Of a DNA stretch of 64,000 nt, positions 4,125-55,012 are shown piece after piece (the stretch's first letter is position 1; each line of letters starts with the position of its first letter). Made by a program: the position numbers and the translations under genes. The DNA is taken from the sequence record KP869102; one strand, given 5' to 3'. The notes beneath the pieces were generated by a model. That model saw only the letters and a list, made by a program, of their open reading frames with translations. It had not been told where the DNA came from and did no database searches. This DNA comes from Escherichia coli O157 typing phage 4.

Positions 4125-6861
4125 CTGTGATCTGGAACGGGACTCCCATCATTTTAGAAGCTTGCCAGAAGCAATGTACCACCATCTCGCCCACAGGGCT
4201 CCAGATAAGTTCAAGCTTTCCGTCATCGTTCAGGATAGGATCGTACACCGTGTTTCCGTCTCTGTCAACCACTTCGTTTCCGTTTTCATCCTTGCGTGCC
4301 TTTTTGTACTTATGACCGTCGAACACATGAAGTTTGGCCTCCTGCTCTGCCTTAAATGCTTCCAATTCTTCAATTGTGTCGAAGGTGTACACAGTCTTAT
4401 ACTTCGGTGTGTCAGGTACTTGAAGCTGATATTCGTCATGGTAATAGATAATACGACGAACACCTTCATCGTACCACCCACGCTTCACCATTTGGTGGTG
4501 CATAAGTATCCCAACTAAGTCACACAGCGATGCACCACCATTCTGTTGGTATGCATTAAGTAAAGAGTGTTTAGATCGGGTCCAGATGGCATGACCATCA
4601 AAAGAGTAGATAAACTTCTTACCCGTTGCTTCCCAGAATTTCTCCAGATCCTCTTTACGCCCCTTAAGACCAGGGTTGGCATCCCAAAGTGCATCGATCA
4701 CCCTTTGTCCCAACTCTGGAGAGATGTCCAGCATATCTGCAACTTTATCTTTTTGTGCCCCGTACATAACCCCATACGTGATAGGTTTACCGTCGTTACG
4801 AGACACCTCTCTGCCTGCTACTTTTGTATATGCCTCAGCATTGTTTTGGTGTGCGTCCCCGTTACTTACAACATCATAATACAAGCCGTTGTCGAACTCA
4901 AAGGCACCCCAAGCCCCGATAAGCTGCTCTAAGTTGGACCCGTCAATACCGATCTCAAAGTATCCTGGAGGAACACCCCACAAGCTACGCATCTCTTTAC
5001 CCATAACCACTTTAGGAGAGGGTTTAGGCATGTTTGCACAAATACTGTGTTTCTGTCTGGAAGTGTTTGTTAATCCAGAGCTTTTAGCAGGAAGCTTATG
5101 GTCAATCTTCAAACGTGGGTGATTAAGAAGACCAGTGTCAACCTTATCCTCCTTGATTGGATCAAGTACCGATCTGCGGTTTCGCAATGATAACCATAAG
5201 ACGATATCTTTAGCCATCTCTCCGTTCAATTTTTCAAGATTCGGACACAGGTGTCCAAACGTATCTTTCAGTTGCGGAGAAGTAATAAGTGCCCTAGCTT
5301 TTCTACGTATTTTCCCGAATACTTCCTTTTTAATCCTTTCGGAGTTAGGAAAGCTTCGGAACTTGTGCACGGTTGTCTGGAACTTAGCATCAGTTTTGTT
5401 CCAGAAGTTGATAATTAGGTCACAATACTCTGACTCTAAAAGCTCGTCCATATATGCATATACTCGTGCATCAACATCTGCATCAGGTAGAGCTTTCTTC
5501 TTGCTGTCTTTAGTTACATCCTTAGTTCTCCACATTGTCGGAAGCCAACCAGCACTGATCAGGTATCGCTTAATGTCGTCCTGATTGCTGATTTTCATAG
5601 GTATCTTGCAGTCCGGCATTCGCTTCTGCTGTAGATCACTTATTGCCTGATCCATTAGCTCTTTAGGTAAAGGTTGTGGTGTGGAGGTGCCCTTAATATA
5701 ACCTCTCAAGAAATCAGCCATCTTGTCGGGGTCTTTGCAGCCCATCTCTTCGCACCATTTTATCCCCATCTTGCTGACATCTCCTGTGGAGGTAAATGCT
5801 CGCTTAGGCGGGGCTTTGAACTCTAAAGCGCTCATGTCTACAGGATAGCCAAGCTTATCTTTTAACCATTTCCAACCATTATTGGAGATTGTCCCATCTT
5901 GGTTAAACGGCTTTTCAGGGAACTTGGGCCGCTGAGACATTGACAGCTCTTTTAAAGGTAGTTGTGGTTCAACACGATCAGCTATTTCTTTCATCCACGC
6001 ATCACAACGGTCACGTAAAGCAATAGCTCCATCTATGTCAAAATACACACCCTGACGGGCCTGCAGCTCCATCAGGAAGTGCTGCAGCATGCCTCGGCGT
6101 AGTGCGTTCTTCCAGGTGATCTTCTTGAACCCTTTCGGCTTCTCTTTGGCAGGATCGTACATAAAGTTCTGCATGTCAGATTTGCCGTAGAATACACCTT
6201 TTGATTCCGCTACCAGCTCTTTCCAGAGCAGCTCCTGGATGATAACGTCCTCGAATACACGATCCACATACTTCCACAATGGAAGATCGCGCCAGTCATC
6301 AATTTGAACTTTCTGGTTACCAAGGGCGTAGCCCCATGCCATAAGGCCGTGAGGACCAACAGGCTGCATTTTCTTAGTAACCGGGTTGAATACAGAGTCC
6401 GGACAACCTTTTGGTAAAGGGCGATCAGGCCACAAGATTCGGCTCATCGCCAACGTATCAAACAGATTAACCTGGTGGTCGTTGATAGTCCCCATGCATT
6501 TAGGATCACGGAACATATCAAAATGAATACCGGATAATCTTTCCATCAGCATAAAGTCATAACTGTAGCAGTTATGGCAGTTCAAAGCTGTTGGTGACCA
6601 GTCGGAATTTCCTGTAAGCCAACCTTCCAACTCCGAAAAATCTGCTATGCGAACTTCAAAATCTTTATAAAGAGTTTTCTTTGCCAGAATAAAGTTCTTA
6701 GCCTTCTCTATATCCTCCTCGGAGTAGTGTGTGCGGTCATTTAGAGGAAGGAACAGCATAAAACGGTTCTTATTCAGCTCTTTAAACAGGCCGCAATGAT
6801 AATAAAGATCTGGGTCTTCCAAGAGCCCGGAGGCCTCCAGATCGAAGCACCAATTACTCAT
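4084..6861 (-). CDS. DNA polymerase, family A (Pol I/T7-like) with 3'-5' exonuclease domain
   Basis: 925 aa; exo motif FDLEASG; polymerase motif A-like DGSNLEQL, motif B KPITYGVMYG, motif C YYHDEYQ. Confidence 0.9.
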   Translation of the reverse strand: MSNWCFDLEASGLLEDPDLYYHCGLFKELNKNRFMLFLPLNDRTHYSEEDIEKAKNFILAKKTLYKDFEVRIADFSELEGWLTGNSDWSPTALNCHNCYSYDFMLMERLSGIHFDMFRDPKCMGTINDHQVNLFDTLAMSRILWPDRPLPKGCPDSVFNPVTKKMQPVGPHGLMAWGYALGNQKVQIDDWRDLPLWKYVDRVFEDVIIQELLWKELVAESKGVFYGKSDMQNFMYDPAKEKPKGFKKITWKNALRRGMLQHFLMELQARQGVYFDIDGAIALRDRCDAWMKEIADRVEPQLPLKELSMSQRPKFPEKPFNQDGTISNNGWKWLKDKLGYPVDMSALEFKAPPKRAFTSTGDVSKMGIKWCEEMGCKDPDKMADFLRGYIKGTSTPQPLPKELMDQAISDLQQKRMPDCKIPMKISNQDDIKRYLISAGWLPTMWRTKDVTKDSKKKALPDADVDARVYAYMDELLESEYCDLIINFWNKTDAKFQTTVHKFRSFPNSERIKKEVFGKIRRKARALITSPQLKDTFGHLCPNLEKLNGEMAKDIVLWLSLRNRRSVLDPIKEDKVDTGLLNHPRLKIDHKLPAKSSGLTNTSRQKHSICANMPKPSPKVVMGKEMRSLWGVPPGYFEIGIDGSNLEQLIGAWGAFEFDNGLYYDVVSNGDAHQNNAEAYTKVAGREVSRNDGKPITYGVMYGAQKDKVADMLDISPELGQRVIDALWDANPGLKGRKEDLEKFWEATGKKFIYSFDGHAIWTRSKHSLLNAYQQNGGASLCDLVGILMHHQMVKRGWYDEGVRRIIYYHDEYQLQVPDTPKYKTVYTFDTIEELEAFKAEQEAKLHVFDGHKYKKARKDENGNEVVDRDGNTVYDPILNDDGKLELIWSPVGEMVVHCFWQASKMMGVPFQITGEYLCGRNWGDCH

Positions 6862-45492: not shown

Positions 45493-45540
45493 TGTGTTCT
45501 CCAGATAAGAAAACCGCCCCGTCAGGAGCGGTTAGATATA

Positions 45541-47286
45541 TTAACGTTGTGCAATTACTACGTCTACGATATCACCAACACCACAATACGTTAATTGCAG
45601 CAAGGTAACACTGTTAGCCTTGTTGTTAATAACAGGTGTTGCCGACAGGATAGCATACTTATCGTGCAAAGTCACGTTGTGACCTACAGCATCCTGAATG
45701 ACATAGATAACTGCAGTGAATGGATAAGGTTTATCTTCAGCTGATGTCCCAGGCCACTGACCTATTGTAAAATCCCCCTTAGCGTGGACAACATACATAC
45801 TGGCCTGCCCGTTAGGTGTCCATGTCCCACTAGACGCGTCAACCTCCTCTAAATCAAAATCTACCTTTCCTGCGTGGAAAGTAGGGGCAGTAATGGTTTT
45901 ACCTGCCTCAATTTCTTGAGAGGTGGTTATCTTACCGCTGGAGTTAATGCCATTACAAACAAAGTTGACATTAGAGAAGTCTGGCAGCCACCCAGTCACT
46001 GTGCCGGATATTTCAAGGTTGTGAAGGTAGGTGGTGCCCGTACCTGCTGCGTTTAAACTAACATCCCCATTTACCTGCAAGTTTCTGGTAACGTTGCAGT
46101 TTTCAGAGTTTGCAGTTGTTGCAGTTAAAGTAGTTGTTGTCAGCTCGGTAATTATGCCTTTGTTGGCTGTAAGCCCTTCCCCTTCAAAAGTTGCACGCTC
46201 ATTGACTCTCAGGGTATTCAGAGCTATGTTTTGGATAGAGGCTGTGCCTCGAATAACTACAGACCCACCAACCTCTAAATCGCCATTTATCAATGCATCA
46301 CCCGTGCTTTCAATATAGCTAGGGTAGATCATGGTGCCATCGACAGAGTAGGTTATCCCTGTAACGGTGCCTGTCACCTCAAGGTTCTTAACCCTGGTGG
46401 TCCCATCGACCTGCAATGTCGGTTCGGTTGCTGCCTTCATGGCATTACCACGAATGTACACGTAGTCAAAAAAGTTATTACCCAGACCATCAAAATGTAC
46501 ATCGTTATTATTAGCCACTGGTTTCCCAGAAGTTATAGTGTCAGCTATAACCCTGTGGGTGGACACTTCATGAGGTTGCAGCTCTGTGCTTCTCCAGTCT
46601 GCATGCTTAGGATCGCTCCACGCAAAAGTAAGTGTAGAAGTATTTGCCGTGAGGATTAGGTTCCTGAAGCGTGCAGTAGAATCTGCTCCATTAACAGGTC
46701 CATGTAAGGTAAGGGTGCCCCCAACTATGGTGTTGGCGAGTTCTGTAAGACCTTTTACCACCAAAGACCCTACAGTAACTTTCATCCCCTCCATGGCTTC
46801 AAATATGCTATCAACATAGTCAACAACAAACTCTGTGTTTGCTATGGACTCTGACTTATCGTCCATTGGAGGTGTAGGTACTCGCGGGTCACCTTCGAAC
46901 CTTGGGCTGTTAAGTTTTGCGTAGTATTTTGCCATTACTGCAGAGTCGGTGTATAATCTCCAGTTTGGAGATTGTGAAGGATCTGCTGGCATTCTAACCG
47001 GGTTAGATTTTGATGCTGCGGGAGCGTACCACCACTGAGGGCCTGTATCCCCTTTAAACTCATACAGCTGGTTAAAAACTGTTGTGGATGCACCATACGC
47101 CCAAGGGATCGGTGGCGTTTTAAAATAAAGGGTGTCAAGCATGGCTTTTCGTACCGTAGGGATGGTGGTCCCATCCTCTACGACAACTTCATCCACAGCG
47201 TTACCGTTGACAATCAGGTGCAAACGTTCAGAATCAACAATTACTTGATCTACCGCCTGCTCAAAGCTTGTCATGTCTTGCGCCAT
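45541..47286 (-). CDS. tail fibre or tail-associated beta-helix-like protein
   Basis: 581 aa; Thr/Gly/Asn-rich repeats typical of fibre or beta-helix proteins; late-operon position. Confidence 0.6.
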   Translation of the reverse strand: MAQDMTSFEQAVDQVIVDSERLHLIVNGNAVDEVVVEDGTTIPTVRKAMLDTLYFKTPPIPWAYGASTTVFNQLYEFKGDTGPQWWYAPAASKSNPVRMPADPSQSPNWRLYTDSAVMAKYYAKLNSPRFEGDPRVPTPPMDDKSESIANTEFVVDYVDSIFEAMEGMKVTVGSLVVKGLTELANTIVGGTLTLHGPVNGADSTARFRNLILTANTSTLTFAWSDPKHADWRSTELQPHEVSTHRVIADTITSGKPVANNNDVHFDGLGNNFFDYVYIRGNAMKAATEPTLQVDGTTRVKNLEVTGTVTGITYSVDGTMIYPSYIESTGDALINGDLEVGGSVVIRGTASIQNIALNTLRVNERATFEGEGLTANKGIITELTTTTLTATTANSENCNVTRNLQVNGDVSLNAAGTGTTYLHNLEISGTVTGWLPDFSNVNFVCNGINSSGKITTSQEIEAGKTITAPTFHAGKVDFDLEEVDASSGTWTPNGQASMYVVHAKGDFTIGQWPGTSAEDKPYPFTAVIYVIQDAVGHNVTLHDKYAILSATPVINNKANSVTLLQLTYCGVGDIVDVVIAQR

Positions 47287-47295
47287 GATTTCTCC

Positions 47296-47562
47296 TTAAG
47301 CTTTTTGCTCTTCGTTTTTAACGTGGTCAGGGTGCTGGCAACCCCACCGGAGCGAGATGAATTTGCTAATAAGCTGGGGGCAAGCTACCGAAGGCGCGTA
47401 TATCCACGCATACCATTCAGGAAGCGTATCATTATACCCCATATGAATAAACACCCCAGTCATTACCGCCATGCCTATGTTCGACCATAGCTTAGATTGG
47501 GACACTTTCGTAGGGTCATCAGATGCCGCAACCAATCCCCATAAAAACTGAGTTAGTTTCAT
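47296..47562 (-). CDS. small membrane protein, holin candidate
   Basis: 88 aa; hydrophobic helix WSNIGMAVMTGVFIHM; lies between fibre genes. Confidence 0.4.
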   Translation of the reverse strand: MKLTQFLWGLVAASDDPTKVSQSKLWSNIGMAVMTGVFIHMGYNDTLPEWYAWIYAPSVACPQLISKFISLRWGCQHPDHVKNEEQKA

Positions 47563-47573
47563 TTACCCTCTTT

Positions 47574-48617
47574 TTAAGCATAAGATATAGTGATCCATTG
47601 ACCGTTTACAAGTTTTTGGATAGCACCTGTCCAGTAATCACCTTGATAAGGGTGTTTATAAGCGTAGTTACCAGAGCACATCACATGTCCAGGGTAGACT
47701 CTTGACTCTCTGTAGGTGGTTTTGAAACGGTTTGCTATCCTTACATCGTCAACCCCTCTACTAGGCATAGGGATAGTAAGGTTACCACTACCGTCTGCGC
47801 TGTTACCATTTACCCTGCGGACCACGTTTCTTCCACCAACTGTTGCATATTGGCCTCTAACGGTTTCATCGTTACAATCAACTCTTCCACCTATTTGAGC
47901 GCTTCCGCAGGATTGTTGTCCGTTAACAGTGGCTCTTGGTATCGTGACCGCATTGGCATTTGCAGAGGAACTTTTTGCATCGTTGCATTCAAGATTTCCT
48001 TGGATAGCCAGTCTTGCACGGTTGGCAGTTATAGCATTGAGCTTCATAGCCGAAAACACAGGCTGCCCACCAGAAGGCTGAAATCTCCAACGGAACCCGT
48101 CTATTTGGTGAGAAGGATCATCAAGATCTGTGCCGTCAGCACCACCAATGTTGTCCATAATCCAGAAATCCATCATCGTCTTGTCTGAGGTTATGGTGGT
48201 ATATATTGCCGCATTGTCTGTTGACGCAGATGCAAACTCGATTCTTTGAAGGCCCAAAGTTTGAGTCTGAGTCATTATGTCTCCAGACTTGTCAACATAC
48301 AGATCGTCCATTTCTTCAGGCGAGTATACATTGAGAACTTGACGTGCAGCAGCTTTGTCTGGAACGTCTGCTAGATTATTAGTAACCCTTAAGAATCTAT
48401 TATCCCATCCTGGGACAACATCTTCTGTTAGATGCTTTAACCACGCAGAAAGCATGTGAAGTTCAAAGTTAACAACTTCACATGCCACTCTTTGTGTCAT
48501 ATCCCAACCTTTCAATCTCTCTTCTTTTTTTGGTTGAGACTTATTCAACTCTCCCGTATTTTCAAGCACAACATCCTGATTGGCCCAAATATCAAGAGGG
48601 ATAACTGGTTTAGTCAT
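47574..48617 (-). CDS. tail fibre protein (paralog of 49632-50672)
   Basis: 347 aa; N-terminus MTKPVIPLDIWANQD and C-terminus QKLVNGQWITISYA shared with the paralog; C-terminus resembles P2 gpH. Confidence 0.7.
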   Translation of the reverse strand: MTKPVIPLDIWANQDVVLENTGELNKSQPKKEERLKGWDMTQRVACEVVNFELHMLSAWLKHLTEDVVPGWDNRFLRVTNNLADVPDKAAARQVLNVYSPEEMDDLYVDKSGDIMTQTQTLGLQRIEFASASTDNAAIYTTITSDKTMMDFWIMDNIGGADGTDLDDPSHQIDGFRWRFQPSGGQPVFSAMKLNAITANRARLAIQGNLECNDAKSSSANANAVTIPRATVNGQQSCGSAQIGGRVDCNDETVRGQYATVGGRNVVRRVNGNSADGSGNLTIPMPSRGVDDVRIANRFKTTYRESRVYPGHVMCSGNYAYKHPYQGDYWTGAIQKLVNGQWITISYA

Positions 48618-48706
48618 CGCGTTCTCCTGAGAAAATTCCTTAGGACTATTTTAACACTTTAGAGAACAAAATGCAAGAACGGAGTCCTTTCCGTTCTGAC
48701 CTTTGT

Positions 48707-49021
48707 TTACCTTTTACTATGCTCTACGAGCATGTGCAAAATCTTTTGTACATCAGCTCGGATACCGGAGACATCTGTCCTGACATCCTGCTTAAGGTCG
48801 TTAATATCGGCCTCTAGCTTGCTTAACCGGGTCTCGATAACGGAATCAAGTTTATCTTTTGTAACCATACTGTTTTTCACTAAGATGAGGTCTTTCTCCA
48901 GTTCATCCAACCTCTTGGAAATGCCTTTCCATTTGGTGTGCCACTGGTTGAAAGCCCATACACAGATCGGGACAACGGTACCCATGCAGATACCGTACAA
49001 TGCCGCCAAATCCAACTCCAC
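48707..49021 (-). CDS. small membrane and coiled-coil protein (holin or spanin-like candidate)
   Basis: 104 aa; N-terminal hydrophobic segment then charged coiled-coil. Confidence 0.4.
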   Translation of the reverse strand: MELDLAALYGICMGTVVPICVWAFNQWHTKWKGISKRLDELEKDLILVKNSMVTKDKLDSVIETRLSKLEADINDLKQDVRTDVSGIRADVQKILHMLVEHSKR

Positions 49022-49032
49022 AACACCTCCTC

Positions 49033-49617
49033 TTAGAGGGTAGGTCGCTCCGGGAAGAAAATGTCAGGGGCTTTAGATGTATCTATTTCAAGAAGTTTTA
49101 CCCTGTACATTTTCAAATCTCTGATGTTACGTTTCTGGTCATCAGTAAGATCATATTCAAGGTCAATCATGTCTTGATAGGCACCAATTCTAGCAGTAGC
49201 CCAAGCAAGTTCTGTCTCTATGACACCCTCTGCCTGTTGAACAAAGAATTCATTATCTGTGACAAATTCATCACCAACTAAACGCAAAGCGTCGTGGTGA
49301 AGCATAATGTTTTCTGGTACCTCTTCTTTTTTGGCGATAACCACACGAAGACCTGGAGCAGGCCATAAGGCATCAGGTTCTTCTGTAGATGTCTTAAGAA
49401 TTCCCTTCTCGTCAACAAGTAGGAAGATACAACCCGGATTTTCTTGTCGTAATGTTCGTGACTGCACATACCAATCGCCATCATCATTACGTAAAAAATA
49501 CCCAGTGTATGCGGTGTAATCCTCAACCTCTTGGGGGGTCAGCTCCTTGGTTTCCTTGTTGGCGTGGTATTCGCCAGATCCCGGTTGGTAAAGTTTAAAC
49601 TCTTGAAGTATTTTCAT
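49033..49617 (-). CDS. tail fibre assembly chaperone (Tfa/gpG-like)
   Basis: 194 aa; C-terminus YRVKLLEIDTSKAPDIFFPERP matches the conserved Tfa C-terminal motif; directly downstream of a fibre gene. Confidence 0.7.
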   Translation of the reverse strand: MKILQEFKLYQPGSGEYHANKETKELTPQEVEDYTAYTGYFLRNDDGDWYVQSRTLRQENPGCIFLLVDEKGILKTSTEEPDALWPAPGLRVVIAKKEEVPENIMLHHDALRLVGDEFVTDNEFFVQQAEGVIETELAWATARIGAYQDMIDLEYDLTDDQKRNIRDLKMYRVKLLEIDTSKAPDIFFPERPTL

Positions 49618-49631
49618 GCTAGTCCTCCGAT

Positions 49632-50672
49632 CTATGCATAATTAACAGTGATCCATTGACCATTTACAAGTTTTTGTAAAGGTCCTGCCCAGTAGGTTGA
49701 ACCACGCATCTCTTTTTTGTCACCGAAATGCCAGCCTGTGACAACGTAGCCGTTGCGAATTGGAGATTCAGAAACGCCGTCAACAAGTCTTGCACCGATT
49801 CTGATGTCTTGCACACCTGTCTGCGGGATAGTGATTGTTACATCACCGTTACCGTTAGCCGTCACTCCATTCACAGAGCGCACCACATTTCTGTTACCGA
49901 CAACACAGTGCTGACTTCTTACAACCATACTGTCACAACTTGCACCACTATTAACATACACTGACCCAGTCGTCAACTGACTAGCCACATTACAGTTGGT
50001 GAATGTTGCTGTATTGCTGATAGTAAGGTTATTACACCTCATGTTATCGACAACTTCAACATTGCCGACCACTTTCAACAGCGCACGGTTAGCCGTGATC
50101 GCGTTAAGGTACATCAAAGTGAACTCTGGATTAATATCCGGCTGAGTTGGCTGGAATCTCCAACGAAACGCATCTACTGTAGATGTACCACCATCATCAA
50201 ACGACCCGGTATTATCACTTAACCCAAAGTCGAGAGTTGTCTTATCTGGGCCAATAGTTGTCTCTATCCAAGCCTTATCTGTCTCGGCAGCTTTAAAGTT
50301 GATACGTTGCAAACCCAATGGGCCTGTCATTGTATCACCTGTAACTTTTACATACCTGGCGTCTGCCTCTTCCTTAGTAATAATCCCAAGGTTTCTACGG
50401 GCAACAGGAATGTTCAAAAGATCACTCAAGTTATTATCACGTACCAGATAACGGCCTTCTTGAGCGGGGATCTGCTCGTCAGCAATGTATTTTGCCCAAG
50501 TTCCGAGCATATTGAAAATATAGTTAAGTTCTTCACATGAGGGCTTTTGACCAAGATCCCAACCTTTTCTCCACAAATCATCAATCGGGCGTAGCCTGTT
50601 CTGTCTGTGGGTGTTAGGCAGAACCTGATCCTCCTCTGCCCAAATCTCTAATGGAAAACTAGGTTTTGACAT
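49632..50672 (-). CDS. tail fibre protein (paralog of 47574-48617)
   Basis: 346 aa; N-terminus MSKPSFPLEIWAEED and C-terminus QKLVNGQWITVNYA. Confidence 0.7.
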   Translation of the reverse strand: MSKPSFPLEIWAEEDQVLPNTHRQNRLRPIDDLWRKGWDLGQKPSCEELNYIFNMLGTWAKYIADEQIPAQEGRYLVRDNNLSDLLNIPVARRNLGIITKEEADARYVKVTGDTMTGPLGLQRINFKAAETDKAWIETTIGPDKTTLDFGLSDNTGSFDDGGTSTVDAFRWRFQPTQPDINPEFTLMYLNAITANRALLKVVGNVEVVDNMRCNNLTISNTATFTNCNVASQLTTGSVYVNSGASCDSMVVRSQHCVVGNRNVVRSVNGVTANGNGDVTITIPQTGVQDIRIGARLVDGVSESPIRNGYVVTGWHFGDKKEMRGSTYWAGPLQKLVNGQWITVNYA

Positions 50673-50684
50673 TTTATCTCCTGA

Positions 50685-52757
50685 TTATGAGAAGTCTGGC
50701 GGGACAACATCCTCTACATACCCTTTCAGAGCAACCTGCCCCATATGAAGCACGGTAGAATCTCTAGCGGTAACAGTGATGCTGTCAGACATTACTTGCG
50801 GGTATGCCCACACATACTGTTTTACCTCAGGGTATCTATACTCTATAGTTGCCATGTTTCCGCAAATACATCTCCATAAAAATTCTTGGTAATTCCTAGT
50901 TGGGTCGTAGCCATATACCGGAGCAAGCTCTTTACTAGGAACGAACCCTGCAAGGTATTGTATTTCAGACGGTTGCCAACCTAACTTAACGATAGGTATG
51001 TTTACAGACTCTTTTGCCTTTTCAATACCCCCCTGCATTACCCAATCGTAGCACTCGGTGCAGAAGAAATCAAGAGCACCTGCTTCTTTTTTATATTGGT
51101 CAGCAAGGTTCAGCTTTTGCGTAAGCTCGGTTTCCATAATGGTTGGGAAAAACAGCAGAGCTGTCATCTGAGCTGATGCAGCGTGTGCCTTTATTGCCTT
51201 TGAAATAGCCGCAATACGAGCGCCAAGCTTACCACGACAAAATGCTACATACTTGTCGTAAACACCGCCAGTTTTAGGATCGTCAATAGTCCCAATATCT
51301 AATGCATACTCACCTGTCTCATCATAAAACGCCTGCTTTGTAGGGTAATCATAAATACAAGGTCTACGAGTATCGGTATTGTACCACCACCATGGTTCAC
51401 CAACCTGCATAATCACTGGCAGGTTGTTTCTCATGGCGGCTGATGCAAAATTCTTAAATACTGCAGTAAGGAAATTCATACCCTCTTCAATGGTTGGAGA
51501 CAGGAGGTAGCTACAAGGTGTATACCCTGTTTTAGCGTAGTTATCGTTCCAGTCTCTTTGGGTCCATTCCAACGGACAGGCATCGCTGTAAAGCTCAAAA
51601 CTTACAGACTGCATAACGTCGAAGTTATGTCGTTTGGCATTGTACATAAAATCATCATGCCATTTATAAGCTGCAGCGTTTAGCGCTCCTGTTCTGTTTA
51701 TAGACCATTGGGTTCCTGACCATGTGTAGTCATAATAATGACTCATACCAACATAATGGTTTATGGTTCCGGTATAGCCCAGACGCTTGATATTGTTCAA
51801 CACCCTTAAAGGAGATACGTTCCACATATCGTCATATGCGGTGCAGATCCCAACGTCGTGCTCTTTAACCTGAATATTGTTAAGTTGCATCATTTTCCAG
51901 CCCGTGTCTGGCTGAAGCAGATCTAGGCGCAACTCACACTCTACATTTTCCGTTCTCGGGTCTGTGCTATTACTTACCCAATCTTTAGGCATAAGCGGTA
52001 TTAAAATCCTTCTCACCTGGCGAGGATCAACACCCATCATGTTGTTGTTCTGATCCATCCCGACGCAGTCCTCGAAATCAATATGAATCTCTGCAACATT
52101 CTTATCCTCTGAGATGCTGGCAGCATATTGAGCTAAAGGAACATAGATGATTGTGCCATCAACAAGGTCTACAGTCATAATCATCTTTTCAGGGGTGGAG
52201 AAGTTGCTGGCATTGGTTATTGACATTCTGAACCAAAGCTTGGTGTTTCTCATCTCATAGTGATCATCAAACCCAATACCGAAATGGTCATACTTATCAA
52301 CTGTTTCCCAAATGCACCCGGCCATACCTCCATATGTTCTTGACACTAAACGGTTAATACAACAGTTGTTATCTGCAACAATACAGGTACTTTCAGTCTG
52401 CTGAGTGGTTGTAACCCAATATCTTGGGTGAAACATTCTCTCCTCAACAGTATCCCAAGATATCCTGTCAAGATTCTCATCTGAAACTATTGTACATTTC
52501 GCCCTTTGTGTTCCAATCATTACCCCTTGGGATTTTGATGAAAACTCCATGAAGAAGCTTCGTGGCAACCTGTTGGGTAATTTGTCAACAATTTCCACGG
52601 GGATCTCAATACTGGTTGCCCCAACTGGGATAGTTATATCGCCCTCAACATGATCATAATCCCTACCAGGAACGGCAGTATCCTGAACTGTGCGGTAATG
52701 AAACCGTGCAGCCATTGTAGAGTAATCACGGTAAGGTTTAAAAACAGCTGTTGCCAT
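50685..52757 (-). CDS. tail-associated structural protein, function unknown
   Basis: 690 aa; late operon between J-like and fibre genes; Trp/Tyr-rich. Confidence 0.55.
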   Translation of the reverse strand: MATAVFKPYRDYSTMAARFHYRTVQDTAVPGRDYDHVEGDITIPVGATSIEIPVEIVDKLPNRLPRSFFMEFSSKSQGVMIGTQRAKCTIVSDENLDRISWDTVEERMFHPRYWVTTTQQTESTCIVADNNCCINRLVSRTYGGMAGCIWETVDKYDHFGIGFDDHYEMRNTKLWFRMSITNASNFSTPEKMIMTVDLVDGTIIYVPLAQYAASISEDKNVAEIHIDFEDCVGMDQNNNMMGVDPRQVRRILIPLMPKDWVSNSTDPRTENVECELRLDLLQPDTGWKMMQLNNIQVKEHDVGICTAYDDMWNVSPLRVLNNIKRLGYTGTINHYVGMSHYYDYTWSGTQWSINRTGALNAAAYKWHDDFMYNAKRHNFDVMQSVSFELYSDACPLEWTQRDWNDNYAKTGYTPCSYLLSPTIEEGMNFLTAVFKNFASAAMRNNLPVIMQVGEPWWWYNTDTRRPCIYDYPTKQAFYDETGEYALDIGTIDDPKTGGVYDKYVAFCRGKLGARIAAISKAIKAHAASAQMTALLFFPTIMETELTQKLNLADQYKKEAGALDFFCTECYDWVMQGGIEKAKESVNIPIVKLGWQPSEIQYLAGFVPSKELAPVYGYDPTRNYQEFLWRCICGNMATIEYRYPEVKQYVWAYPQVMSDSITVTARDSTVLHMGQVALKGYVEDVVPPDFS

Positions 52758-53443
52758 TAACCCTCCTGTCTAGTTGCGTTTACTGTAATACTTTCACAAT
52801 AAATGGTTGTGGTGTCCCAATCAGGTCTTACGTCAGGAACATATAGCAAAGTAGCCAGCCCACCAACTCCGAATTGGTTTTCTTCCCACACTGATCCGAA
52901 GCCAAGAGCTGTAGAGTCCCCTTCAAAACCAAAAGCTTGCCCTTGCGATTCTGTAAGACGCAAATGACAAGGCAATGGTAGCATATCTAAGATCTGATCG
53001 ATAGACTGCAATATGTCAAAGCAAGTTTTTCTAATATTTATGTCAAACCTGAAGTTGTCTCCTTTCCACGTATCGAAATTGTCTCTTCCGAACAATTGTC
53101 GCAAGGTGGAGATGACATCTTCGCGAGTCCCGCCCCTTGATGCTGCGGCCTGCTGAATAATTAGTGTGGCACGAAAATCAGCATCTGAAAGTCCATTCCT
53201 AAGAATACCAAGTTGATTACCAACTTCGTCGAGGTATCTTCCGCTGGCATTGTTAAGCAATCTTCCTTCAGCCAAACCTACCAGCATCTTATCAACATCC
53301 TCCAACCTTTTAAGGTATACGGTTAAGAATGTGACTAAATTAACCTTCTCAGCCAGAAAATCTCCAGGTAGGTAGTCAAGACCTCCCTGAACAAAATCTG
53401 GCAGAGTGTGGATGTGGTTAACATCCGACTTAATCTCTGCCAT
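52757..53443 (-). CDS. tail-associated protein, function unknown
   Basis: ORF track 228 aa; late operon. Confidence 0.5.
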   Translation of the reverse strand: MAEIKSDVNHIHTLPDFVQGGLDYLPGDFLAEKVNLVTFLTVYLKRLEDVDKMLVGLAEGRLLNNASGRYLDEVGNQLGILRNGLSDADFRATLIIQQAAASRGGTREDVISTLRQLFGRDNFDTWKGDNFRFDINIRKTCFDILQSIDQILDMLPLPCHLRLTESQGQAFGFEGDSTALGFGSVWEENQFGVGGLATLLYVPDVRPDWDTTTIYCESITVNATRQEG

Positions 53444-53454
53444 ATCTCACCGCC

Positions 53455-54945
53455 TTAAATAGTTTGTTGGAAAGTTATATTACTTTCGTCGAGGTCAAAC
53501 ACCTCGGTCATGTTCGCAACAATGTCGTTTGTGGTGTAAGCTTCATCAGAAGCTCCTACTGGTTTAACTTGAATTACCAGTCTATTAAATCTACCTATTG
53601 ACACAGCAGCAGATGCAGCACCGACCAATTGGATATTATACAACGTATCTGCAACATCCAGTCCGTTAACAACCTGCAAAAGAGCCTCTACAATGGCATC
53701 TTTTTCGGTTGTGGAAAGCGCAGCACCAGAGTAGGTAATTCTTACATCCAAGCGGTAGGTATTTGCCTTGGAGTAATAAATTCTTTCAGTTTGACCGTCA
53801 GATGTAGTGACATCGTAGAAAATATTACCATAAGTCCTGTTCGTACAGGCTATAGTTTGGTAAAGTGCTTGGCAAATGTCCTCCGTTGCACCACCAAACA
53901 CAACCACTTGGAACTTGTAAGGAGGTATACCTTTAGCATCAGTTTTATCAGTGTTGTTGGAGAACACTCTCACTTTCTCAACACCTTTCACCTCGCTTAC
54001 AGCGCTAAGGATTGCAGGACGGGTAGCCTTCGATGTTAACTGTTTTGTGCTGGAAGCTCTTAAGCGATACTCGGAATCTTTCTCAACATCCCTGCCCTCG
54101 TTGAATCTTTCTCGGTTGGTAAGCTTGATAAATCCGCTGGGAGTAGGTGACATTGTTGTCACGGTCTCTGCCTCTCTTGACAGCTCACCAGCCTCGTTAG
54201 CTATAACATCTAGGGTGATAGTTCTTTCCCCTACAATCGGGGATACTCTGAAATCTACCCTGCTATTAAGTCCAACTTGATCAAGATTAGAATTGTACCC
54301 TATCCACAACGTTCCTGTCAACATATCGATCTGAATCAGATCGTCGTTCAATAGAGTTGTATTATCGACAATGAATTGCTTAATCTCTCCGTAAAAGCTT
54401 GGCAGATCAGAAGAGTCCAGAGCCTTATCTGTTAAAACCAGACTTTTTGTTTTGATACTTCCATCTGTCTGGTTGGTAATTTGAAAGTTGTATTTCCCAA
54501 TTCTTAGATCTGGAGCGTTTATCCTGTGAGCAATAAGATTCCCTGCTACCTGCACGTCATTGCTAAGAACAAAGTTCCCACTGTCTAATGTGTAAGTTTT
54601 GGAATCGTAAATCATGTTGTACGGCACAGTTGTGTTGATCGTCAACTGGCAGGTACCTGATGATTTAGAACGGCCTCTTCGGTAAATACCCTGTCTTCCA
54701 AGAAGTTCATCTAGGTAAATACCTTCTGCCCCATACAGCGTCTGCGATGCGTATACAGATGCTGCCATAAGAATAAGTTGATACTCTCGCTCGTTGAAGA
54801 TAGTGGTCAGCTTATCTGCAACGGAGTTACTCTGTACGTTGAAGTTTTCGCCAAAAGCACGGATCAGGCTTTGCTTAGTTTCAACGATTAGGTCATTTAG
54901 GGTTGGTATAACGAAACCAGCCTCTGTCAATCCATACTTAGCCAC
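53455..54945 (-). CDS. tail-associated structural protein (weak resemblance to baseplate-J-type N-termini)
   Basis: 496 aa; N-terminal pattern GLTEAGFVIPTLNDLIVE...AFG only loosely resembles baseplate J/gp47 starts. Confidence 0.45.
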   Translation of the reverse strand: MAKYGLTEAGFVIPTLNDLIVETKQSLIRAFGENFNVQSNSVADKLTTIFNEREYQLILMAASVYASQTLYGAEGIYLDELLGRQGIYRRGRSKSSGTCQLTINTTVPYNMIYDSKTYTLDSGNFVLSNDVQVAGNLIAHRINAPDLRIGKYNFQITNQTDGSIKTKSLVLTDKALDSSDLPSFYGEIKQFIVDNTTLLNDDLIQIDMLTGTLWIGYNSNLDQVGLNSRVDFRVSPIVGERTITLDVIANEAGELSREAETVTTMSPTPSGFIKLTNRERFNEGRDVEKDSEYRLRASSTKQLTSKATRPAILSAVSEVKGVEKVRVFSNNTDKTDAKGIPPYKFQVVVFGGATEDICQALYQTIACTNRTYGNIFYDVTTSDGQTERIYYSKANTYRLDVRITYSGAALSTTEKDAIVEALLQVVNGLDVADTLYNIQLVGAASAAVSIGRFNRLVIQVKPVGASDEAYTTNDIVANMTEVFDLDESNITFQQTI

Positions 54946-55012
54946 GTCACTCCTCCGGTATGAAAATCTCTACAAGGTATTTTACCAAATTTTGTAACAA
55001 TAGTCAATCTGA

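Follow-up and report, generated by a model that had tools for sequence, protein, structure and literature searches.

We analysed two short tail fibre genes, here called STF-A and STF-B, together with the gene for a Tfa chaperone that lies between them, in a 64,000-nucleotide (nt) stretch of Escherichia coli O157 typing phage 4 (record KP869102; this whole stretch is called the window below). The observations are best explained by an rV5-like short-tail-fibre locus in which two ancient paralogues and one Tfa jointly serve irreversible binding to the lipopolysaccharide (LPS) core, an explanation that we consider likely. According to this proposal, each paralogue would form homotrimers docked on the baseplate periphery. 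The single Tfa would help the STF-A tip to trimerise, probably the STF-B tip as well, and would stay attached afterwards, as in phage Mu. The two fibre sets would together perform the irreversible LPS-core binding step and, in the rV5 lineage, a diverged STF-B tip core may widen the range of core types that are bound.

Layout of the fibre locus

The window comes from a Vequintavirus and is ~98% identical to phage rV5 at the nucleotide level. In a megablast search with positions 45500-53500 as the query, 110 phage records matched at 90-99% identity, each with at least 80% of the query covered; rV5 was 98.3% identical, and BASEL Vequintavirus phages were also matched. Orthologue names used here are taken from the annotations of rV5 and MaxBurger. 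The whole gene cluster is on the minus strand and tightly packed, the 89-nt gap upstream of STF-B being the sole sizeable one. The central part of the locus is as follows (aa, amino acids).

50672-49632, minus strand: short tail fibre A (STF-A), 346 aa, orthologue of rV5 gp33
49676-49647, minus strand: sequence coding for QKLVNGQWIT in STF-A (residues 333-342)
49617-49033, minus strand: Tfa chaperone, 194 aa, orthologue of rV5 gp32
49021-48707, minus strand: 104-aa protein with a GTG start, orthologue of rV5 gp31
48697-48666, minus strand: terminator-like hairpin (48697-48676) with its tail, directly after the 104-aa gene
48656-48647, minus strand: late-promoter-like motif TGTTAAAATA, 30 nt before the STF-B start codon
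48617-47574, minus strand: short tail fibre B (STF-B), 347 aa, the extra paralogue, orthologue of rV5 gp30
47618-47589, minus strand: sequence coding for QKLVNGQWIT in STF-B (residues 334-343)
47562-47296, minus strand: 88-aa protein, orthologue of rV5 gp29

STF-A and STF-B are 99.1% and 99.4% identical, respectively, to the rV5 proteins, from which they differ at 2-3 residues. A preliminary description of this DNA, made from the sequence alone, had listed both fibres, the Tfa and the 88-aa reading frame, and these stand; the 104-aa gene (49021-48707) and the 89-nt intergenic region were missing from it.

Two paralogous and functional fibres

The 346- and 347-aa reading frames, previously described as paralogous fibre genes, are free of internal stops, and their products are 42% identical end to end over 356 aligned columns (E 7e-93). 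The motif QKLVNGQWIT, noticed earlier as common to both C-termini, is indeed found near the end of both proteins. The distribution of similarity along the fibres differs from the shared N-terminal anchor and divergent centre that had been proposed, since identity peaks in the middle of the proteins. In 30-residue windows, identity was highest at residues ~106-210 (43-63%), was 27-37% over most of the N-terminal region, and reached minima at residues ~211-255 (20-30%) and ~301-330 (27%). Viewed as blocks, conservation is best at residues ~106-195, and divergence is strongest at ~196-255 and in the tip core at ~286-330. Over residues 1-110, the two fibres are just 38% identical to each other, whereas STF-A has 54-56% identity with the single fibres found in other genera. 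In the central region, the nearest relative of STF-B is STF-A, at 46.5%. The block at residues ~196-255 holds 12 of the 19 positions that vary in gp33 among 8 Vequintavirus genomes, and is also the least conserved between deep lineages.

Both fibre genes are of unchanged length and free of stops in all 8 of these genomes, with mean dN/dS values of 0.026 (STF-A) and 0.052 (STF-B) at a dS of ~0.31. Each is present in ~115 phage records at ≥96% amino-acid identity. Mass spectrometry detected gp30, gp32, and gp33 in rV5 virions (PMC3606486). Since both genes are intact in the 8 genomes, have low dN/dS, and encode proteins found in virions, they are evidently functional and, judging from the substitution pattern, under strong purifying selection.

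The 30 nt coding for QKLVNGQWIT are identical at 29 of 30 positions between the paralogues, and 9 of its 10 codons are the same, while at other positions with a shared amino acid ~42% of codons agree and the background nucleotide identity of the two genes is ~52%. This near-identity could be due to a small conversion tract, or the motif could be a conserved recombination anchor for tip exchange. Recent gene conversion was rejected as the cause of the overall similarity: the longest nucleotide word shared by the two genes is 15 nt, and the terminal motif alone is nearly identical.

Anchor, shaft, and tip

Both fibres match PHROG 4465, the Vequintavirinae short tail fibre family that includes rV5 gp30 and gp33, over their full lengths (STF-A residues 1-346, E 3.1e-171; STF-B residues 1-347, E 6.7e-166). 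Their N-termini match the short tail fibre of phage phiTE (9cuy; STF-A residues 1-108, E 1.7e-19; STF-B residues 1-83, E 1.9e-8). At the other end of STF-A, residues 286-343 match the C-terminal domain of Mu gpS (PDB 5yvq; whole-sequence E 2.5e-6). A fibre-family profile compared with the PDB recovered the same two structures, the phiTE short tail fibre (9cuy) with an E of 5.7e-25 and Mu gpS with an E of 2.2e-10; the profile search also revealed a repeated NLxDxxxxxxARxNLG motif, common to the Pakpunavirus short tail fibre.

Against a 6-sequence database, STF-A residues 287-346 matched both Mu S (E 5.5e-6) and P2 H (E 0.004). The tip had been likened to that of P2 gpH, and this can be confirmed for STF-A, yet Mu gpS is the better match. 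The alignment with P2 H runs VKDVRLGTR...PIQKYINGTWYNV, so that QKLVNGQWIT pairs with PIQKYINGTWYNV of P2 H and with PVQKNINGTWYNV of Mu S. STF-B alone gave a weak match to Mu S (E 0.03, residues 286-347 against 438-504) and none to 5yvq; homology of its tip to Mu S follows only indirectly, from how it aligns with STF-A and from the terminal motif that both fibres have. Taken together, these similarities indicate that both fibres are tripartite, with a predicted phiTE-type docking domain, then a shaft, and finally a Mu gpS / P2 gpH-type tip at the C-terminus.

The phiTE short tail fibre attaches to the wedge 1 protein through its N-terminus, which forms a globular joint there (PMC11972413). 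The wedge-1 orthologue encoded in the window (52757-53443) matches phiTE wedge 1 (9mjn) with an E of 6e-67 and phi92 gp146 with an E of 2.6e-23 and, by analogy, is likely the docking partner of the fibre N-termini.

A single Tfa chaperone

The 194-aa protein matches the Pfam family Caudo_TAP (PF02413) with 45.8 bits against a gathering cut-off of 22.1 (E 8.4e-12), residues 121-192 aligning to profile positions 60-130. It also matches PHROG 136 (E 2e-36) and, by BLAST, Mu U' (E 4.6e-4); a phmmer comparison with the PDB returned only spurious matches. Its gene starts 14 nt past the STF-A stop codon. A tblastn search of the window revealed no second Tfa and no relic Tfa or fibre fragment (next best E 4.6), and STF-B is followed by the 88-aa gene. 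The earlier observation that a Tfa-like chaperone follows the upstream fibre only thus holds.

Two old fibre lineages

Several relatives have one short tail fibre. In Seunavirus SSE121 and GAP31, Mydovirus Mydo, and the unclassified Vequintavirinae phage TH18, the gene order is fibre, Tfa, 104-aa protein, polytopic membrane protein of 133-157 aa, 87-91-aa protein, and gp28-like fibre. In Justusliebigvirus (phi92-like) phages, it is fibre, Tfa, 113-aa protein, and lateral fibre. STF-B occupies the exact slot of the polytopic membrane-protein gene of the Seunavirus, Mydovirus, and TH18 loci; the membrane protein found in that slot (L003, 6497-6970; L006, 6461-6934; L005, 6419-6820; L012, 6520-6993) has 4-5 strongly hydrophobic segments. 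The gp31 and gp29 genes have orthologues at the same places in single-fibre relatives and are therefore ancestral, and the 88-aa gene, being present there too, is not a partner of STF-B. The locus had previously been taken for a duplicated receptor-binding cassette; comparison with the loci of the relatives shows that the fibre gene alone was doubled, the Tfa, 104-aa, and 88-aa genes being single and ancestral.

A protein search with STF-B revealed the same two-fibre layout in uncultivated relatives (L016, L017, and L019). Identity to the window is 87% (STF-A) and 78% (STF-B) for L017, and 72-73% and 48%, respectively, for L016 and L019. A neighbour-joining tree that included the uncultivated relatives recovered an A clade with 99% and a B clade with 85% bootstrap support. 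Because these clades are recovered across lineages whose A and B proteins are as little as 72% and 48% identical to those of the window, the duplication is old. In a tree of the N-terminal region (residues 1-110), A grouped with the single-copy fibres (89% bootstrap), while B formed a separate clade (78%). In position and sequence, STF-A is the counterpart of the single short tail fibre of the sister genera. STF-B, as judged from these trees and identities, is an additional lineage of old origin that evolves faster and has an anchor type of its own.

Tip cores of different lineages

The two fibres of L016 and L019 have nearly the same C-terminal stretch of ~60 residues, with 87-93% protein identity and 75-80% nucleotide identity. 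The excess of protein over nucleotide identity implies that selection maintains one tip sequence in both proteins. The A tip of the window and of L017 is similar to this shared tip, with the pattern GxxLxDGVxxxxxRxGYVxxGWxxGxKKExRG, while their B fibres carry a different tip core of ~35 residues, ANRFKTTYRESRVYPGHVMCSGNYAYKHPYQGD. The flanks V(Q/D)D(I/V)RI and QKLVNGQWIT are kept around the tip core in both window fibres. Across 115 records, the STF-B tip shows ≥95% conservation, and nothing else related to it exceeds 43% identity. The distribution of tips among lineages argues against two receptor specificities as the general explanation for a second fibre; the conserved, distinct B tip leaves room for a second specificity that may exist in the rV5 lineage.

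Putative signals upstream of STF-B

The gap upstream of STF-B contains a terminator-like hairpin, AGAACGGA-AAGGAC-TCCGTTCT, followed by TGCATTTTGT, then by TGTTAAAATA, and then by a Shine-Dalgarno sequence. The hairpin stem is kept by compensatory changes at 5 pairs in 5 lineages, while the AAGGA loop and TTGCATTTT are conserved, and a terminator is annotated at the matching place in phage Murica. The published late-promoter motif of rV5 is TggTAaAAtA (PMC3606486). TGNTAAAATA occurs 6 times in the window, against 0.9 expected, and none of 100 shuffled sequences reached this number. The sites, of which the two near the fibre locus were inspected, are:

1302, 12284, 24113, 48647, 54978, 60489, all minus strand: TGNTAAAATA
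54987-54978, minus strand: late-promoter-like motif TGGTAAAATA, upstream of the baseplate J-like gene (start 54945)

At the fibre locus, TG(T/C)TAAAATA is invariant in L017, L016, L019, and FV3, and the hairpin and promoter-like motif persist where the flanking genes have diverged to ~50% amino-acid identity. From this arrangement, STF-B probably heads its own late unit (STF-B, gp29, gp28, and gp27), and STF-A and the Tfa gene would be in a probable upstream unit that starts near 54978-54987. A conserved AAGGA loop on a changing stem is unusual for a plain terminator, and the loop might have an additional role at the RNA level.

Proposed role of the fibres in host binding

Several published observations bear on the proposed joint role of STF-A and STF-B in LPS-core binding. 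The only homologous fibre of phage phi92, gp147 ("fibre III"), points downward from the wedge as six trimers, and irreversible binding has been attributed to it (PMC13450770). Genetic analysis of phage LL12 showed that the first glucose (Glc I) of the LPS outer core is required (PMC7229145). The BASEL study (Maffei 2021) reported little allelic variation in either paralogue and a shared requirement for the LPS core (PMC8594841). In the RBPseg study (2025), this fibre class was fitted in a 7-9.5 Å map of MaxBurger, and a Mu-like C-terminus and an implied need for a chaperone were described; the published trimer models were reported to resemble the Mu fibre (PMC12143355).

A number of points weigh against joint binding by two chaperone-assisted fibre sets. 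The ~35-residue tip core of STF-B is only ~30% identical to that of STF-A. At the resolution of the MaxBurger map (7-9.5 Å), to which one model was fitted, the paralogues are indistinguishable, and the virion may have 6 or 12 short fibres (PMC12143355). Service of STF-B by gp32 is not assured, given the diverged B tip core, its E of 0.03 to Mu S, and the variable fibre-binding N-terminal domain of Tfa proteins. The promoter and terminator are motif and structure matches only. Lastly, an AlphaFold2 monomer model of STF-B, made from a 10-sequence alignment, was unusable (pLDDT 31.9, pTM 0.19, no residue above 50), as might be expected for an obligate trimer.

Dual host range, which had also been suggested for this locus in the preliminary description, is a hypothesis that was published for rV5 in 2013. 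The B tip core of the rV5 lineage, distinct from that of A, highly conserved in the 115 records, and without close relatives, speaks for it. The 87-93% identity of the A and B tips in L016 and L019 counts against it, as does K-12 genetics, where a single LPS-core requirement was found (PMC7229145, PMC8594841).

The strongest competing explanation, to which we give somewhat less than an even chance, is that both fibres bind the same receptor from two positions or heights, which would raise avidity or order the binding steps, the divergence of the rV5 tip being secondary. It agrees with the separation of A and B in every lineage by the N-terminal anchor and shaft (89% and 78% bootstrap support; 38% identity between A and B over residues 1-110, against 54-56% between A and the single fibres), with the same tip being kept by selection in L016 and L019 (87-93% protein against 75-80% nucleotide identity), with the absence of notable allelic variation and the one shared LPS-core requirement in the BASEL study (PMC8594841), and with LL12 needing Glc I only (PMC7229145). 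On the other hand, the distinct B tip of the rV5 lineage, conserved at ≥95% in 115 records, points to a distinct binding surface that is being maintained, and a second core specificity would escape host-range work limited to K-12.

We also put forward, tentatively and as rather less probable than not, that the two paralogues make two structurally distinct fibre sets rather than being a recent duplicate. STF-B, with its own anchor and its own late unit, might then use a second docking site, giving 12 rather than 6 short fibres per virion. The pairing would have arisen once, through replacement of the polytopic membrane-protein gene, after which the tips either stayed the same (L016, L019) or split into two conserved specificities (rV5), with one Tfa throughout.

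Possible chaperone sharing and origin of STF-B

Tfa proteins have a variable N-terminal domain, which binds the fibre, and a conserved C-terminal domain, which trimerises (PMC9608196). It is plausible that gp32 serves both fibres, as L016 and L019 likewise encode one Tfa for two fibres, whose tips are 87-93% identical, and the window tips keep the flanks. It is unlikely, in our estimate, that STF-B folds without Tfa, either alone or with the help of gp31, gp29, or a host factor, leaving Tfa to STF-A alone. Such a division of labour would fit the arrangement of the locus, since the Tfa gene adjoins STF-A in the upstream transcription unit and STF-B lies behind the terminator-like hairpin with its own promoter-like motif. 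It would also fit the B tip core being unlike the A tip, and the few variable Tfa residues (18-28; 8 genomes), which do not obviously track changes in the B tip. However, the terminal motif is conserved in both tips, relatives with near-identical A and B tips also have one Tfa, and gp31 and gp29 occur in single-fibre phages and so are not B-specific helpers. Moreover, both fibre genes are behind late-promoter-like motifs, so that the proteins would be expressed jointly and Tfa could easily act in trans.

The same low probability is assigned to STF-B having been imported horizontally from another phage rather than duplicated in place. Tail fibre genes are notoriously mosaic, the bootstrap support for A+B monophyly is only 47-56%, a nine-sequence neighbour-joining tree could not place STF-B, the N-terminal domain places B outside the clade of A and the single-copy fibres, and B replaced an unrelated membrane-protein gene. 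Against this, no donor was found: beyond orthologues, the best matches of B are STF-A (42-45%) and Seunavirus fibres (~40%), its tip has no relative above 43% identity, and its central region is nearest to that of A (46.5%). Adding the uncultivated relatives to the tree resolved the A and B clades, with A+B monophyly still at ~56%. That one copy is redundant or decaying is scarcely credible: although close paralogues are often redundant and B evolves faster than A (48% against 73% identity to the L016 copies), both genes are full length in all 8 genomes with dN/dS of 0.026 and 0.052, ~115 phage records carry each at ≥96% amino-acid identity, both proteins are found in rV5 virions (PMC3606486), and the pair persists across deeply diverged lineages.

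Neighbouring genes and small proteins

The remaining genes of the cluster are:

54945-53455, minus strand: baseplate J-like protein, 496 aa, orthologue of rV5 gp36
53443-52757, minus strand: baseplate "wedge 1" protein, 228 aa, orthologue of rV5 gp35
52757-50685, minus strand: deacetylase/TIM-barrel fibre protein, 690 aa, orthologue of rV5 gp34
47286-45541, minus strand: fibre, 581 aa, orthologue of rV5 gp28
45492-39856, minus strand: Ig-domain fibre, 1878 aa, orthologue of rV5 gp27

The gp31 orthologue has an N-terminal hydrophobic anchor (Kyte-Doolittle mean 1.91, residues 5-23) followed by a coiled coil and belongs to PHROG 5345; rV5 gp31 is entered as "membrane protein, 1 TMD" in Table S3 of the rV5 paper. 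It is 33% identical to 104-aa proteins at the same position in Seunavirus and Mydovirus. FV3, YP-6, and B9-1 annotate a 92-aa form from an internal ATG, while rV5, MaxBurger, and ECP26 use the GTG; the longer form is favoured, because a 104-aa protein with a hydrophobic N-terminus is conserved in Seunavirus and Mydovirus.

The 88-aa product had been described as a membrane protein that follows the downstream fibre. Its position and annotation bear this out (PHROG 1322, "membrane protein", E 2.7e-32), but its hydrophobicity is weak, the best 19-aa windows having Kyte-Doolittle means of 1.05 and 1.0. Its identity is 52-58% to the Seunavirus and Mydovirus proteins of 89-91 aa and 51% to the 87-aa TH18 protein. 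Across genera, gp29-like proteins are thus 51-58% identical, compared with ~40-46% for the fibres, 25-32% for Tfa, and 33% for gp31. Phage ECP26 has a 1-nt deletion in the gp29 gene (266 nt; L009, ~4554-4819), where no coding sequence is annotated, and the gp29 homologues of L016 and L019 (118-126 aa) have a C-terminal extension rich in RYSD repeats.

When gp31, gp29, and Tfa were compared with one another as possible duplicated partners, no similarity was found at E ≤1e-3. Neither fibre, nor gp31, gp29, or the 157-aa membrane protein of the relatives, had a significant Pfam match, and the five locus proteins and the 157-aa protein had no NCBIfam match. Both gp29 and gp31 were considered as lysis proteins, no holin having been positively identified in rV5-like phages, and there was no evidence either way.

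The gp34-like 690-aa protein consists of Calx-beta, NCTSP_N, and a TIM barrel resembling the N4 non-contractile sheath protein. Its gene lies between wedge 1 and the A fibre in the window, TH18, L016, and L017, and upstream of baseplate J in Seunavirus and Justusliebigvirus, which reflects a local rearrangement of the fibre locus within the subfamily. Finally, 16-21 GenBank records named "Campylobacter phage" (MG0656xx; for example C15, A12a, and C12; host C. jejuni) are ≥98% identical to positions 45500-53500. These records probably carry a wrong host label or derive from contaminating coliphages.

Relation to known systems

The finding itself is known. Kropinski and co-authors reported in 2013 that gp30 and gp33 are 42.3% identical, that they resemble T4 gp12 in HHpred searches, and that they may recognise two LPS chemotypes (PMC3606486). 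Maffei and co-authors described in 2021 two paralogous short tail fibres and a chaperone homologous to Mu GpS/GpU (PMC8594841). Published work thus already covers the pair, its chaperone, the homology to Mu, and the dual-LPS idea, and what is added here is modest: separate old A and B clades with distinct anchor types, a membrane-protein gene that STF-B replaced, conserved terminator- and promoter-like motifs upstream of STF-B, and lineages with the same or with split tips. The locus of the window has the same genes in the same order as rV5 and the BASEL phages (MaxBurger/Bas54), at 98% nucleotide identity, and differs from them in nothing material.

Mu gpS (gp49)/gpU (gp50) and P2 gpH/gpG are alike to the present system in the tip module VxDxRxG ... 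GHVxTG ... PxQKxxNGxW and in a Caudo_TAP-family Tfa encoded directly downstream of the fibre, here STF-A. Tfa remains part of the virion in Mu and rV5 alike. Mu and P2 express one fibre at a time, and in Mu, DNA inversion switches between S/U and S'/U', each fibre having its own Tfa, whereas here two fibres are encoded together with a single Tfa. The window fibres are anchored by an N-terminus of the phiTE/Vequintavirinae type, unlike that of Mu. With phiTE (9cuy/9mjn) and phi92 gp147, the fibres share the N-terminal docking domain, the wedge-1 partner, and presumably the downward-pointing arrangement at the wedge periphery, but phiTE and phi92 each have a single short tail fibre gene and six trimers. 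Unlike the window fibres with their compact shaft and Mu-like tip, the fibre of phiTE, a flagellotropic phage, has a long coiled coil and Ig-like distal domains. T4 gp12, with its chaperone gp57A, offers an analogous case of irreversible LPS-core binding by short fibres on a myovirus baseplate, but T4 has one short-fibre gene and a chaperone of the gp57A family in place of Caudo_TAP. We found no gp12 among PDB matches at E ≤1 for either fibre or at E ≤0.1 for the family profile, and did not reproduce the published HHpred hits.

Phages of the rV5 type, which belong to the most frequently isolated coliphages, are used in typing sets and in therapeutic or biocontrol cocktails, and their short tail fibres carry out the irreversible step that commits the phage to infection. 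If STF-A and STF-B do make two fibre sets, these phages would lend themselves naturally to asking how two tips can be served by a single chaperone and how two short-fibre sets fit on one baseplate. Knowledge of the LPS-core specificity, baseplate position, and chaperone sharing of the two paralogues would aid host-range engineering.

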